Positions 19,402 through 29,554 of a stretch of DNA of 40,364 bases are shown here, in pieces. Source of the DNA: a virus (lineage: Duplodnaviria > Heunggongvirae > Uroviricota > Caudoviricetes). The position numbers were made by a program, and so were the translations under genes. Position 1 is the stretch's first letter. Every line of letters starts with the position of its first letter. Below the pieces are notes generated by a model, which saw nothing but the letters and a program-made list of their open reading frames with translations, had not been told where the DNA came from and did not search any database. The stretch spans positions 1 to 40,364 of the IMG/VR virus record IMGVR_UViG_2563366860_000007; one strand, given 5' to 3'.

Positions 19402-21159
19402 TCACAGAATTAACAGGTCCTCATCAGGATCAAGCGTGGACAGAAAGTCATTCACGCCCCCGCCATTTACCAGAAAGCGGCTCATGGCCGTAAAAAGTGC
19501 AACAGGGCCGTCGATTTTGGCTTCAGGCGTGGATTTATTCGGGAAGATGTTGTCGTTTTTGTCCGGTTTTACCGTAACGTTAGACATCATCCAGTTCATG
19601 ACCGGATGATTGCTGTGATGGAAACGCCCGGCATAAACCAGTGATTCCGTTTCCTTCATGGCCTCTGACAGATTGCGGACCGTCTGCGGAACCTCCACCA
19701 GCGGTATCCCTTCTTCAGCCAGTGCCAGGCTGAACTGCATTGCGCTCCACGGGTCAAATCCCAGTTCCCTGAGGTTTTCACCGCCAATCCATTCCAGTAA
19801 GTCACTTTTTATCTGAGCATGATCGATAACATCACCATCCGTCAGGATGAGCTTATCCATCTCCGCCCACTTCCGGTAAAGTTCTGCCTGCTGCCGCGAG
19901 CATCGCTCCAGCCGTCCTTCCGGAAGCCAGAATTTAAAATCAGCATGAACATGTCCGTTATCGGTTCGCCAGAGTTTTGCCGCCGCACAGATATCAATCT
20001 TATGAGCAAGGTCTACGCCGACCCACATGGGATATGTTTTCAGCTCATGTTGTGGAGCAATGTATTCGCACTTCTCCCACTTAATCATATCCATCCAGGC
20101 AGATTCGGCAGTGACCCACACATTCATGTGTTTGGTAAAAAAATTCACCCGCGCAGAGACCTGCTCCTTCGCTTTTTTCGCCAGACGACGCAGATCATCC
20201 CAGCGTTTACAGATGCCCAGGCCAGGATTCGCTTTCTGCCAGACCGTTTCATCAAACGGATCATCTCCCTCATCAAGCGTGTAAATGATCGCAAAGTAAG
20301 AGTCGTCTTTTACAGCGCCCTCCACGTCGCTGTTATAGCCTCGCAATACCTTGATGGCGTAATCACGCTGCTCGTAACAAATCCCTTCCTTGTTAAAGCC
20401 AGCCGTGGTGATACCAAATAACAGGGACTGCAGACGGGCACCGGTTGCCGTTTCCAGAACGTCCCACACGTCGCGGGTTTTATGTGCATGCAGCTCATCA
20501 ATAATGGCGCAGTGGATGTTCAGACCGTCCAGGTTGTTTGCATCCGAGGAAAGCGGTTCAAATTTTGATGCGCTCTGCTCCTGGTAAATCGCCAGCTTGT
20601 TGAAATCAAACAACCGCCCGAGTGTCGACCGGGCTTTTCTGACCATATTTTTGGCGTCTTCAAACACGATTCTGGCCTGGTCACGCGTGGTTGCGGCTGA
20701 ATACACCTCAGCTCCGCCTTCACTATCTGCCCCCGTCATATACAGGCCGATACCCGATGACAGTGTTGATTTTGCGTTTTTACGGGCGACTTCGTTGTAC
20801 GCCGTCCGGAACCGGCGCACCATCACCGGACGTCCGCTGCCATCGCTGCGCATGACAACTTCCCCGGTTTCTTCATTGACCAGCGGAATGACAAAACCAA
20901 AAATATTAATGAGGATAAATACATGCCAGTCCATCAACTCAATGGGCTGGCCTGCCAGTGCCCCTTTTACATGAGGCACAAATTTGTAGAAATTCAGGAT
21001 GTGCTGCGCACGGGGTTCACTGAAATAAATCCCCCGCTTTTCGCCGTACTTCAGATCATCAAGAAAACGCTGGCAGGCCAGGCGGACAAATTCGCCAGCA
21101 ACAATTTCTCCTGCAACAACACGTTCGGCGTAGCGGATCCCGTCAGCCACTTTTGCCAT
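19402..21159 (-). CDS. Terminase large subunit
   Basis: 585 aa; ATPase region followed by a nuclease region; start overlaps the small terminase stop. Confidence 0.9.
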   Translation of the reverse strand: MAKVADGIRYAERVVAGEIVAGEFVRLACQRFLDDLKYGEKRGIYFSEPRAQHILNFYKFVPHVKGALAGQPIELMDWHVFILINIFGFVIPLVNEETGEVVMRSDGSGRPVMVRRFRTAYNEVARKNAKSTLSSGIGLYMTGADSEGGAEVYSAATTRDQARIVFEDAKNMVRKARSTLGRLFDFNKLAIYQEQSASKFEPLSSDANNLDGLNIHCAIIDELHAHKTRDVWDVLETATGARLQSLLFGITTAGFNKEGICYEQRDYAIKVLRGYNSDVEGAVKDDSYFAIIYTLDEGDDPFDETVWQKANPGLGICKRWDDLRRLAKKAKEQVSARVNFFTKHMNVWVTAESAWMDMIKWEKCEYIAPQHELKTYPMWVGVDLAHKIDICAAAKLWRTDNGHVHADFKFWLPEGRLERCSRQQAELYRKWAEMDKLILTDGDVIDHAQIKSDLLEWIGGENLRELGFDPWSAMQFSLALAEEGIPLVEVPQTVRNLSEAMKETESLVYAGRFHHSNHPVMNWMMSNVTVKPDKNDNIFPNKSTPEAKIDGPVALFTAMSRFLVNGGGVNDFLSTLDPDEDLLIL

Positions 21160-23924: not shown

Positions 23925-23990
23925 TGCCGCCCGTATCCATATGCGGGCTTTTTTTTGCATGTAAAAAGGCCCCAACACATGTGCGTGGGG
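23925..23990. terminator. Pair of hairpins upstream of the holin (possible bidirectional terminators)
   Basis: GCCCGTAT-CC-ATATGCGGGC followed by T8 (plus-strand terminator) and AAAAA-GGCCCC-N13-GGGGCC (minus-strand terminator). Confidence 0.4.
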
Positions 23991-24192
23991 CCTGAGAGTA
24001 TACATGGTTTCAGTCAACTGCATGGTGCCGGGTGCCTCCCGGTGAATTCAGTACCAGCACCTGAATCCGCGATTATCCCATATACCTACTCGCTGATTGC
24101 CCATCCGCACAGGGGGATTCACCATGCCAGTTTCTTTTAACAAACTCCCCGCAAAACAGACAACTGTCAACCGTCTGAATTGTGAGACATTT

Positions 24193-24218
24193 AAAAAAAA
24201 GGCCCGCAAAAGCGAGCC
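24193..24218 (-). terminator. Rho-independent terminator just downstream of the tRNA cluster
   Basis: Plus strand AAAAAAAA then GGCCCGCAAAAGCGAGCC; on the minus strand a 7-bp stem (with one G-U pair) and UUUU loop followed by U8. Confidence 0.5.
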
Positions 24219-24232
24219 GGGAAAAATAAGTC

Positions 24233-24309
24233 TGGCGCGTTGTACTGGATTCGAACCAGTGACCGATTGCTTAGAAGGCAATTGCTCTGTCCGGTTGAGC
24301 TAACAACGC
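24233..24309 (-). tRNA. tRNA-Arg (anticodon UCU)
   Basis: Hand-folded cloverleaf: acceptor GCGTTGT/ACAACGC perfect, anticodon arm ATTGC-CTTCTAA-GCAAT, T-loop GGTTCGAATCC, encoded CCA; third gene of an Ile-Arg-Arg cluster like ileZ-argN-argO of Stx phages. Confidence 0.8.
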
Positions 24310-24322
24310 AGGGTACAGATAA

Positions 24323-24399
24323 TGGACCGCCTTCGGGGACTCGAACCCCGCGCAACCAGCTTCGAAGGCTGGTGCTCTATCCTGATGAGCTAATGGCGG
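24323..24399 (-). tRNA. tRNA-Arg (anticodon UCG by hand folding)
   Basis: Acceptor CCGCCAT/AAGGCGG with one A-A mismatch at 6:67, anticodon arm CCAGC-CTTCGAA-GCTGG, T-arm CGGGG-TTCGAGT-CCCCG, encoded CCA. Confidence 0.7.
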
Positions 24400-24406
24400 T
24401 ATGTGA

Positions 24407-24482
24407 TGGTGGCCCTTGCTGGATTTGAACCAGCGACCTGGCGATTATGAGTCGCTCGCTCTCACCACTGAGCTAAAGGGCC
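24407..24482 (-). tRNA. tRNA with CAU anticodon, Ile2 (ileX/ileZ-like) backbone
   Basis: Acceptor GGCCCTT/AAGGGCC, anticodon loop CTCATAA, T-loop GGTTCAAATCC; backbone resembles recalled E. coli ileX (lysidine-modified CAU reading AUA) rather than elongator or initiator Met tRNA. Confidence 0.75.
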
Positions 24483-24522
24483 GGGAGCCGCATAATAACG
24501 ACGCGTAATTAATTCTTCAATA

Positions 24523-24801
24523 TCATCCGTTCTGGCTGACTAAATCCTGTACTTCCCGAACCGCCTGCTCAAAACGTTCAGTCTCCAGCTCAACGCCAAT
24601 TGCACGACGCCCGAGCGCCAGTGCCGCTTTCACTGTCGAACCCGACCCCATGAAAAAATCTGCAATCAGGTCACCCGGACGACTGCTAGCGCTGATTATC
24701 TGCTGCAGCATTTCTGCCGGTTTTTCGCACGGATGTTTCCCGGGATAGAACTGCACCGGTTTATGCGTCCAGACATCGGTATACGGCACCTGCGCCGTCA
24801 C
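24523..24801 (-). pseudogene. C-terminal remnant of a beta-class N6/N4 DNA methyltransferase
   Basis: 92-codon ORF with motif I DFFMGSGST and a HPCEKP region typical of the C-terminus of DPPY-first methylases, but no DPPY motif and only a GTG start; an in-frame stop lies about 33 codons upstream. Confidence 0.65.
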
Positions 24802-24859
24802 GCCAAAATACCGCCGCAGTCGGCATTCACAACCACCAGCGCATTTAACGTTCAGCCAT

Positions 24860-24884
24860 AAAAAAACCCGCTCGCGGCGGGTTT
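24860..24884 (-). terminator. tR'-like rho-independent terminator shortly downstream of Q
   Basis: Plus strand AAAAAAA then CCCGCTCGCGGCGGG; perfect GC-rich hairpin followed by U7 on the minus strand, about 70-90 nt downstream of the Q stop. Confidence 0.6.
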
Positions 24885-24886
24885 AA

Positions 24887-24952
24887 GCTGTGTGGCGAAG
24901 TAACCACTCTTAACATACTGACATACTTTTTGCGGACCGCACTAATCATTTT
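24887..24952 (-). promoter_or_regulatory. Predicted late promoter pR' / qut region
   Basis: Short AT-rich interval between the Q stop and the tR' hairpin; assignment by position (Q acts at a promoter just downstream of its own gene); individual promoter elements not resolved. Confidence 0.4.
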
Positions 24953-25333
24953 TTACTTTTTTAGCAGCCAGTCGTCCATCTCCAGTCTTACCCCCAGCAC
25001 AGACAAACATCCGTCAATAAACCCTTCGGCTATCTGCATCTCAATTCGTATTGCTTTTTCGCTTTTCTTTCTCGTCCTGGCTATCTGTCTTTTTGATATT
25101 CGCAACAAATAATGAGCAATGAGAAGCGAATACTCCTCAGGTTTTTTCTGCTTCAGACGAGCAAGACAGTTTTCAATGATAAGTCCGTCATCATCGCAGC
25201 AGGCCGGACGTGGTTTAGTGGCAGATGGTAAAAGTCCTTTGAATCCGGCAGCGATCGGAGAATAGTCCACCCCGGTGTTACCACTTGCAGCCCATGCCCC
25301 CCAGCGTTCAAGAACCATCTGAATATCACGCAT
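24953..25333 (-). CDS. Late antiterminator Q (QuuD-like family)
   Basis: ATG at 25331-25333 (MRDIQMVLERWGAWAA...AAGFKGL...RPACCDDD...) matches recalled DLP12 QuuD; the longer track start at 25348 is GTG. Confidence 0.8.
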   Translation of the reverse strand: MRDIQMVLERWGAWAASGNTGVDYSPIAAGFKGLLPSATKPRPACCDDDGLIIENCLARLKQKKPEEYSLLIAHYLLRISKRQIARTRKKSEKAIRIEMQIAEGFIDGCLSVLGVRLEMDDWLLKK

Positions 25334-25350
25334 CAACTTTCTCCACAAAA

Positions 25351-26340
25351 TCAGGCCAGCACGCCAATTGCCAGCGCACGATCGATAAAACGAAATATCA
25401 GCTCCAGCTGGGAGCCATACTTCTCTTCAAATGCCACGGTATCCGCATGCAGCTCGTCGTGATGCTTTCTGCACAAAGGCAACACAAAGAGGTCATGCGC
25501 TTTTGTACCCATTCCCCCCTGACCGTGGCCTATCAGGTGGTGGGGATCATCAGCTGGCTTTCCACAACATGCACACGGCTGTGTCTTAACCCAGCGCGTG
25601 TACTTTTCATTAACCCAGCGGCGACGTTTTGGGCGTAACATAAAAGACTCCGGCGACTCCGGATCCACTTTCAGCGCCAGCACCTTTTTCGCTTTATCCT
25701 GGATAATGCTGGTGGCAGGAACCGAAGGAACAAGGTCACTCTCCCGGGTGACAGACGGCACAACAGGCTTCGGTAATCTCAGTGCCTTACGGGCTGCACT
25801 TTCCGGTAAGGCATCCGCCAGGTCATTACGAACCAGCCACCAGCACAGTTCCGGCATTGTCACAACGTGACTGTCATCAAAACCGAGATCACGGCGCACA
25901 ACAGATAACACCCAGCGGGCACAGTTATCCGTTGCCATTGATTCCAGCCGTTCCGTGAACTGGTCACGGAGAAGATTGTCACAGTGCCAGCACAGACGGA
26001 TTGCGCCTGGCGCGTGCCGCATTGTGGTCATGTTCTCGCTGTGCCAGTCGGAATGAGGCCACTGACAGCCCTTTTCACGAAGTAACCAGCTCTCAAGGCA
26101 TTCCACGCCACCAGCACGACGGATCACCGCCTCATGGCGGAACACGGCCCGAACGGCAGGATCATCCGCCAGCGGTTGTGATGCTGCCGGAACGGCACCA
26201 CTGGCAAAAGATGAATAACGTTCCGGCTCAGGCTCCAGCAGGACGCGCCCCTGCATAAACAGGGGCATCAGCTCTGAACCGGGTCTGAACAAGACGATCC
26301 CCATACGCGGGGCTATTTCAGGGGTCAGCAGTGCTCTCAA
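25351..26340 (-). CDS. DUF968-like protein with C-terminal Cys/His motif (YdfU-like)
   Basis: 329 aa; C-terminal CACCGKPADDPHHLIGHGQGG...CRKHHDELH suggests a zinc-binding or HNH-like motif; immediately upstream of Q. Confidence 0.55.
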   Translation of the reverse strand: MRALLTPEIAPRMGIVLFRPGSELMPLFMQGRVLLEPEPERYSSFASGAVPAASQPLADDPAVRAVFRHEAVIRRAGGVECLESWLLREKGCQWPHSDWHSENMTTMRHAPGAIRLCWHCDNLLRDQFTERLESMATDNCARWVLSVVRRDLGFDDSHVVTMPELCWWLVRNDLADALPESAARKALRLPKPVVPSVTRESDLVPSVPATSIIQDKAKKVLALKVDPESPESFMLRPKRRRWVNEKYTRWVKTQPCACCGKPADDPHHLIGHGQGGMGTKAHDLFVLPLCRKHHDELHADTVAFEEKYGSQLELIFRFIDRALAIGVLA

Positions 26341-28087: not shown

Positions 28088-28410
28088 ACTTTCAGGTCCC
28101 TCTCATGTAACCAGTGGGTTGCACGCAGCCTTGCGTTTTCCTCACCGGCAAGCAGTGAGCGGATAATCCCGACCGCTTCGCTGTCGTCGTCCTTCACTGC
28201 GGTATGAAGCGTGATCCCCCGGGCCACACCACGCTTTATCGTGATGACGCCTTTTTTCTCCAGTGCGCGAAGATGCTCCACCGCTGCATTCACTGAACGG
28301 TATCCCAGCATGGTTGCCACCTCCTGATTGGTTGGCGGGAAGCCACGTTCTTTCTGATAAGAAATCAGCATATCCAGCACCTGCTGCTGGCATTGAGTTA
28401 ACGTCGTCAT
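28084..28410 (-). CDS. LexA-like DNA-binding domain protein (no peptidase domain)
   Basis: 108 aa; LTQCQQQVLDMLISYQKERGFPPTNQEVATMLGYRSVNAAVEHLRALEKKGVI resembles the LexA N-terminal winged HTH; no S24 Ser/Lys region. Confidence 0.6.
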   Translation of the reverse strand: MTTLTQCQQQVLDMLISYQKERGFPPTNQEVATMLGYRSVNAAVEHLRALEKKGVITIKRGVARGITLHTAVKDDDSEAVGIIRSLLAGEENARLRATHWLHERDLKV

Positions 28411-29060
28411 GCCGCCATCTCCCTGACCAGTTTTTCTGCCTGCTGGCGAACCTGCGCCAGAAAGGCCTCACCACATGCCTCAAGTTCATCGCGCCCGATG
28501 TAGCTGATTGCCGGTCCCTTCCAGGTCTTGTCGAAAACAGCAATAGCACCAGCGAAGAAAGCGCCTGTCGGTACCTGCTTCTCGTCTTTCGGGATAAACC
28601 AGGCAGGCAGTTCAAAACCAATACGCCCTCGAATAAAAGCAATATGGTCCGCATCTTCCGGCCACCACACTTCGCTGGTGGCAGCTTTGATCAGGAAAAC
28701 ATAGCGCCCCCCCTTATCACGCATGGCACTGGCATGTTTCATGATGTAACGCATGCCGGTGATGTATTGCCCCTCATGCTGACTGGCGCGGCTGTATGGG
28801 GGATTACCAAAGGCAGCCCCTTTAAGCTCCGCAAGACGTTCTGACCAGTCATGCGCCAGCGCGTTGTCTTCCGCCGTGTAATACGCAGCACATTTGGCGT
28901 TATCACCGTCAGTGAACAGATCCAGAACAAACGGGCCAAACAGGGTGTTAATTCCCCAGAAAATGTTGTCCGGCGTGCGCCACTGATCGCCCACTTCCTT
29001 CAGTTCATGGGCTGGTTTGTTCCGCAGTTCCACCAGCGCCTGGCAATATTTATTACTCAT
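28407..29060 (-). CDS. Phage DNA N6-adenine methyltransferase (Dam family)
   Basis: NPPY motif (GNPPYSR); ATG at 29058-29060 (MSNKYCQALVEL...) overlaps the upstream gene stop (TAATG). Confidence 0.8.
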   Translation of the reverse strand: MSNKYCQALVELRNKPAHELKEVGDQWRTPDNIFWGINTLFGPFVLDLFTDGDNAKCAAYYTAEDNALAHDWSERLAELKGAAFGNPPYSRASQHEGQYITGMRYIMKHASAMRDKGGRYVFLIKAATSEVWWPEDADHIAFIRGRIGFELPAWFIPKDEKQVPTGAFFAGAIAVFDKTWKGPAISYIGRDELEACGEAFLAQVRQQAEKLVREMAA

Positions 29061-29554
29061 TAAGCCCCCACGAAATTCCCTGACAGATACCACTCTTCAC
29101 CCGATGCAGCGCGCTTGCTGCTTTTCCGTAAGCACCGCTCACGACGTGCCAGAAAATTGTTTCGTTCTGGCTGGGAGTGGCTTTCACGGAATGCCGCCAT
29201 CCACACCGTTGCAGCACGACGGTATAAGCCCCTGGACTCCAGTTCTTCAGCCTGGCGGGTCAGGCACAAAATCACACGGGGATCGTTAGTGCCGACATAG
29301 AAATTGCGCACAGGTCTGGTTTCACGAACTGGTTGTGGTTCCGGATCCTGCGCTCTCTCAGTCAGGCGTGGGAAATGTCTGCGTGTATCTCCTTCACAAC
29401 GGTGAGCCACACGCCCACTCTGACGTAACTTGCTTGCTGACTGCAGAACGCGCTGCCGTGAGTAACCAGCAAAAGCATCCGCAATGTCTCCGGAAGTACA
29501 CCCCGGATGGGCTTCAATGAATTTCTGAACGTCATTCAAAAGACTCATGATCAC
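29060..29554 (-). CDS. Hypothetical protein, possibly PerC-like regulator; coupled to the replication initiator
   Basis: 164 aa; C-terminal LESRGLYRRAATVWMAAF resembles the recalled PerC-family core; start overlaps the O-like stop (ATGA); sits where lambda P would be but is not P-like. Confidence 0.35.
   Translation of the reverse strand: MIMSLLNDVQKFIEAHPGCTSGDIADAFAGYSRQRVLQSASKLRQSGRVAHRCEGDTRRHFPRLTERAQDPEPQPVRETRPVRNFYVGTNDPRVILCLTRQAEELESRGLYRRAATVWMAAFRESHSQPERNNFLARRERCLRKSSKRAASGEEWYLSGNFVGA

Follow-up and report, generated by a model that had tools for sequence, protein, structure and literature searches.

The locus between the Q-controlled late terminator and the tRNA genes of this phage raises the question of what a 92-codon open reading frame with the marks of a DNA methyltransferase is doing there. 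It could be a small gene in its own right, a fragment that is still put to use, or what is left of a larger gene. The stretch of DNA that was analysed, referred to as the window, is 40,364 nt long. A preliminary description of the locus had regarded the frame as the truncated end of a beta-class methylase, left behind by a recombination event and perhaps still translated. The comparisons made here indicate that it is almost certainly a non-functional pseudogene, consisting of the last 98 codons of a 352-aa methyltransferase of the late operon, and produced by one deletion of 1,181 bp.

The ORF runs from a GTG at 24801 to 24523 on the minus strand, and its 92-aa translation includes DLIADFFMGSGSTVKAAL. 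It matches the Pfam profile PF01555 (N6_N4_Mtase) with an E-value of 1e-24 and 88 bits, which excludes a chance match, but the aligned part is limited to profile positions 137-220 of 221. The other methylase profiles gave the same picture, and in every one tested (Pfam, NCBIfam, PHROGs) the C-terminal third alone is covered. The AdoMet-binding motif I (FxGxG) is present as FMGSG within DFFMGSGST, and the catalytic motif IV, (D/N/S)PP(Y/F/W/H), was not found in the remnant. Full-length homologues cover positions 1-219 of PF01555, with motif IV N-terminal to motif I, a coverage that the remnant does not reach. The frame had been described as a C-terminal methylase piece with motif I and without DPPY, and this is borne out. 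A tblastn search of the window with a full-length homologue recovered residues 255-352 as the only part, at 24819..24526 and with 94.9% identity, and there was no match anywhere in the window to the DPPY of the parent or to the rest of residues 1-254. The estimate that the last c. 90 codons remain is right for the ORF, with its 92 codons, but not for the homology; in-frame similarity to the methylase begins at 24819, 6 codons before the GTG, which gives 98 surviving codons. The GTG itself is an internal codon of the parent, Val261, that is also found in intact genes and is GTA in P27.

The features of the locus are listed in Table 1.

Table 1. Features around the methylase remnant, in the order of transcription, with window coordinates.
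Feature	Coordinates	Strand	Basis or remark
DUF968/YdfU-family gene	26340..25351	-	Upstream of Q
Q antiterminator	24953..25348	-	Pfam Phage_antitermQ, E 1.6e-52; longest ORF from TTG 25348
Late promoter pR' and qut region (approximate)	24894..24942	-	Extrapolated from 933W homology alone
tR'-type intrinsic terminator	24857..24884	-	Terminator scan and 933W homology
Diverged post-terminator spacer	24820..24851	-	Last pre-deletion sequence collinear with intact relatives
Deletion junction	24819..24820	-	BLAST and alignments
Methylase pseudogene remnant, codons 255-352 and stop	24523..24819	-	Pfam, tblastn, RefSeq flag
Sigma-70-like promoter TTGAAG-17-TATTAT	24492..24520	-	Promoter scan; 933W feature table and alignment
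tRNA cluster ileZ (CAT), argN (TCG), argO (TCT)	24233..24482	-	ARAGORN; Rfam tRNA

In the annotation of the E. coli cS91a locus, which is 100% identical to the window here, the RefSeq CDS of Q is 381 nt long (WP_001204806.1) and corresponds to 24953..25333. The region that follows Q can be aligned with phage 933W, where window 24916..24860 is 83% identical to 933W 20692..20748, and the 933W annotation places pR' at 20666-20693 and qut at 20707-20714. The terminator consists of a stem of 8 pairs, AAACCCGC/GCGGGTTT, closed by a loop of 5 nt, with a T-run behind it (hairpin 24884..24864 in the terminator scan). It is identical in Stx2a_1447, MFDS1006657 and MMC-J-0078, and its hairpin aligns with the first 'possible rho-independent terminator' annotated after pR'/qut in 933W. 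Because of this homology the remnant is placed in the Q-dependent late transcript, and to judge from its position RNA polymerase probably still passes through it before reaching the tRNAs and the lysis genes. The arrangement claimed earlier, an ORF wedged between tR' and the tRNAs with its GTG just past the hairpin, agrees with the map, the distance from hairpin to GTG being 62 nt. On the other side of the remnant, the sigma-70-like promoter is situated between the methylase stop codon and ileZ, and corresponds to 'pT', annotated as a putative tRNA promoter in 933W. The names ileZ, argN and argO are those used in the annotations of Stx2 phages and 933W. By ARAGORN the first tRNA (24407-24482, minus strand) is a tRNA-Met, with the anticodon CAT; in Stx phages, 933W and most RefSeq entries it is ileZ/tRNA-Ile, a naming (AUA-reading) that presumes lysidine modification. 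A P21-type holin, a YdfR-family gene and a lysozyme follow 3' of the tRNAs on the same strand. Literature searches gave no match for ileZ/argN/argO together with a methyltransferase, and a paper on the pR' region (PMC6266700) does not mention the methylase.

An intact gene is found at the equivalent position in Stx2 phages, in P27 and in many stx-negative prophages. In the Stx2a phages and P27 it is a 1,059-bp 'DNA methylase' of 352 aa, directly upstream of ileZ-argN-argO and preceded by a 198-bp hypothetical ORF (65 aa). In its protein, DPPY is found at residue 35 and FMGSG at residue 310. By megablast against phage records, window 24200-24819 is 93% identical to the Stx2a phages and 86% to P27. 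The methylase of Stx2a_1447 and P27 (BAT32403.1; L24/CAC83542.1; also WP_000483494.1) occupies the same locus, from tR' to ileZ, and over the surviving 297 nt the DNA identity is 93% to the former and 86% to the latter, with the protein identity over residues 255-352 as given above. Compared with these phages the window lacks the 65-aa ORF and, from the methylase, codons 1-254 with the DPPY motif and the middle part. The parent matches beta-class enzymes with solved structures, among them M.RsrI (1eg2), CcrM (6pbd) and M.MboIIA (1g60), in two blocks, an N-terminal one with motif IV and a C-terminal one with motif I. Of these blocks the remnant retains just the second, and the catalytic one is missing. 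The lost 65-aa ORF (2669-2866 in the loci of both MFDS1006657 and MMC-J-0078) belongs to phrog_331, a family of unknown function, and has a sub-threshold match to a TrmB-like winged helix (E 0.0024). Among the relatives inspected it always stands before the intact methylase, and it may therefore be a partner or regulator of the methylase. M.EcoPA8orf6770P, an MT-A70-type rRNA methyltransferase of Stx prophages (Gong et al. 2023, NAR), was considered as the parent and rejected, being of a different family and locus; according to that paper it has DPPW, an MT-A70 fold and a place beside the gp6/gp7 winged-helix genes, whereas the remnant is of the PF01555 family and has other neighbours.

Undamaged counterparts with the same type of Q region are present in E. 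coli MFDS1006657 (stx2-positive, locus L006) and MMC-J-0078 (stx-negative, locus L007). Both flanks of the remnant are collinear with these two loci and with L001. Window 26339-24821 corresponds to L006 1067-2597, and window 24819-24192 to L006 3779-4407; the spacer alignment runs to L006 2597 with an 11-nt indel, and the flanks are 96.4% and 95.5% identical to MMC-J-0078. What is missing is L006 2598-3778, 1,181 bp that hold the 65-aa ORF and methylase codons 1-254, and no copy of this segment is found elsewhere in the window. The deletion begins c. 45 nt past the terminator stem, with the junction at 24820|24819 (...GTGAATGCCGA|CTGCGGCGG...). In every relative the homology ends at 24819/24820, and the identical junction is present in L002, L004 and L008-L012. 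The microhomology common to the two parental sequences at the breakpoints is at most 2-3 nt (CT or TCT), and a 7-nt repeat, GTGAATA, which in the intact relative precedes each breakpoint by a few nt, does not form the joint, a pattern in keeping with an illegitimate deletion rather than a homologous exchange. The direction of the event, a loss, is not in doubt, since the remnant starts in the middle of the catalytic domain and without the native start codon. With orthologous flanks, and with the native start and an essential part lost, the remnant is on sequence grounds a pseudogene of the late methylase of the Stx2/P27 type. It had been proposed that the breakpoint be mapped by comparison with prophages that carry the intact gene, and this mapping succeeded, with collinear flanks on both sides. 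Of the recombination scar suggested beforehand, the loss of the 5' part of a methylase in the Q-dependent late region is upheld, but the event is a simple 1,181-bp deletion and not an exchange of unrelated modules. A weak 5-pair hairpin followed by GTATTTTGG spans the junction (24812-24825, minus strand). The region has 3 terminator-like sites as compared to 1.2 ± 1.1 in shuffled sequence, and since this is near the shuffled expectation the hairpin is probably a chance match.

The same joint could conceivably have arisen if the Q-pR'-tR' module of an unrelated phage had been fused, within the methylase, to the tRNA/lysis module. Lambdoid phages are mosaics, E. coli G1/2 links the same remnant to a different Q region, and 24819 is where homology to most Stx2 phages breaks off. 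However, collinearity with the intact relatives extends through the 32 nt from tR' to the junction, and MMC-J-0078 combines an intact gene with the identical Q protein, holin and flanks; its Q (WP_001204806.1) and holin (WP_000839574.1) are the proteins annotated in cS91a. One deletion thus explains everything, and a joint of modules is extremely unlikely. A quite different idea is that the 92-aa ORF represents a real, conserved short family, and that the 352-aa genes are fusions or expansions. The label 'DNA adenine methylase' in phage PhiR49_2, and a database cluster of 92-aa proteins (P0001, 121 members), could be taken in its favour, but the restriction to the C-terminal third of every profile and the missing motif IV do not fit a complete protein, and neither does the DNA homology to the intact gene, which starts abruptly within the series of codons and at one fixed point. 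Furthermore, the database relatives are scattered over 70-161 aa, a mixture of pieces that are mostly labelled 'partial'. The protein search with the 92-aa query gave sequences of at most 161 aa only, mostly partial at contig ends, and the genome counts below were taken from DNA searches. The chance that such a family exists is close to nil, and the junction mapping effectively refutes it. The preliminary description had named a conserved full-length family of 92 aa as the observation that would speak against a fragment; what we found was scattered partial lengths, and an intact 352-aa gene c. 20 times commoner than the junction allele in E. coli genomes.

A third alternative is that the fragment is translated late in infection and has a non-catalytic function, acting for instance through AdoMet binding or interference with a related full-length methylase. 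The frame is open and by position within the Q-dependent late transcript, motif I is intact, no disabling mutation is seen in 8 truncated copies, and there is a GGCGG upstream of the GTG. This GGCGG is a weak and interrupted Shine-Dalgarno match, with an anti-Shine-Dalgarno duplex of -6.3 kcal/mol, an energy similar to those of the Q and DUF968 genes in the window, so that the comparison does not discriminate. Against such a function speaks that the start is an internal Val codon which existed already in the parent, and that other phages retain 36 codons or none at this place. The fragment is also only the motif X/I-III part of a single Rossmann-type domain, as is established for beta-class methyltransferases such as M.RsrI and CcrM. 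The 8 truncated copies differ in the remnant by 3 substitutions, 1 synonymous and 2 non-synonymous, with 0 frameshifts and 0 stops. One of the non-synonymous changes replaces Pro by Leu at a site that is invariant in the five full-length homologues compared, which argues against a function, and the other is Thr to Ala and specific to the window/cS91a allele. With just 3 substitutions the absence of frameshifts and stops says nothing about selection; the substitutions give no hint of constraint, and the variation is too small to test selection. In the 477-nt variants of the allele no frameshift was found in the ORF, and the one indel, of 1 nt, is in the T-run of the terminator (24866). Taken together this makes a late, functional fragment very unlikely. 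For the truncated AdoMet-binding product suggested to arise under Q read-through there is no support, with a GTG that is Val261, a weak Shine-Dalgarno match and the half of the fold with motif IV missing, although some translation from this GTG may occur. That a 92-aa AdoMet-binding fragment from the late transcript has a dominant-negative effect on co-resident full-length methylases, or serves as a small AdoMet-binding protein, is a very long shot; if true, such a modulating fragment would explain why the allele has reached 88 genomes and two or more phage backbones. A catalytic product can in all likelihood be excluded: motif IV and the presumed target-recognition region in the middle are gone, and without motif IV no methyltransferase activity is expected.

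The pseudogene is not confined to one prophage. Among 5,426 complete E. coli genomes, 88 carry the junction allele (478-nt junction-spanning query, coverage ≥80%), and 1,900 contain ≥80% of the missing 1,181 bp. The identical junction is also seen in a different prophage backbone, that of E. coli G1/2 (NZ_CP060083.1, L008), which has another Q region and patches of the Stx2-type allele within the remnant. The same junction in this backbone suggests that a single deletion allele has been moved, and has spread among prophages, by recombination. G1/2 also has a reverse-strand cassette of two genes between Q and pR'/tR' (L008 114-2948), coding for a DNA cytosine methyltransferase and an 'ATP-dependent nuclease', which may be a defence-type accessory insert.

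The remnant is an ordinary prophage pseudogene that has already been flagged by NCBI's annotation pipeline. All six RefSeq genomes inspected list it among the pseudogenes, under product names such as DNA methyltransferase or site-specific DNA-methyltransferase and with the remark 'incomplete; partial in the middle of a contig; missing N-terminus'. One of these entries, AC3XI2_RS10610 of E. coli cS91a, is 100% identical in sequence and junction and thus the same allele. Phage PhiR49_2, deposited as a complete genome, has a 99.5%-identical copy in which the 92-aa ORF carries the GenBank label 'DNA adenine methylase', and this label is an over-annotation. The novelty implied in the preliminary description is therefore absent, the more so as truncated versions downstream of Q are known from the literature; in a survey of Stx2a phages the methylase-related sequences at this place fall into classes of 50 aa and 352 aa (PMC10462455).

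The '50-aa putative methylase' of that survey and the methylase sequence of 933W are likewise truncated 3' ends, directly upstream of pT and ileZ. In 933W the same gene has been reduced to its last 36 codons (equivalent to 24633-24523 of the window), which lie behind the second terminator of that phage; with 98 codons left in the window, the two breakpoints are independent. Phage vB_EcoS-640R1 has ileZ and no methylase sequence, and the homology between this phage and the window stops at 24522. The 36 codons of 933W and the lack of any in vB_EcoS-640R1 point to recurrent decay of an accessory gene. The locus is thus an example of accessory-gene decay in the interval from Q to the lysis cassette in lambdoid phages, with the states intact, 98 codons, 36 codons and none. 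Retention of the methylase 3' end as a cis element needed by the tRNAs was also considered, and was rejected because vB_EcoS-640R1 has ileZ without any remnant.

The course of events was most probably as follows. The parent is a beta-class N6/N4 DNA methyltransferase, with motif IV followed by motif I, and an accessory gene of the Stx2/P27-type lambdoid late operon, situated between the Q-controlled terminator tR' and ileZ-argN-argO. A single illegitimate deletion of 1,181 bp, with no more than 2-3 nt of microhomology, would have taken the 65-aa phrog_331 ORF and codons 1-254, and with them the catalytic DPPY and the target-recognition region. This one allele would then have spread between prophages via recombination. 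Read-through of tR' under Q would, going by the position, still transcribe the remnant, which would be a mere spacer in the transcript toward the tRNAs and lysis genes and would give rise to no DNA methylation.

Some neighbouring features could also be observed. Further along the minus strand, window 23957-24192 is an 'empty' stx site, a late-region scaffold of an Stx phage without the 1.33-kb toxin operon. The homology to Stx2 phages jumps from just past the argO terminator (24192) to the sequence downstream of stxB (24189 onward), and the sRNA family STnc100 (RF02076, 133 bits) is found at 24156..23957, while in 933W and Stx2a_1447 it comes directly after stxB. A 61-aa ORF on the plus strand (23955-24140) overlaps STnc100 and equals a RefSeq pseudogene, 'hypothetical protein, missing C-terminus', and a 34-aa ORF on the minus strand (24845-24949) crosses the pR'/terminator region; these two are very likely not genes. 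In the early-right region there is an ORF for a phage Dam-family N6-adenine methyltransferase (28407-29093, minus strand; PF05869, E 1e-45), apparently intact. The prophage thus has a dead methylase in its late region and a separate Dam-family gene that looks intact.
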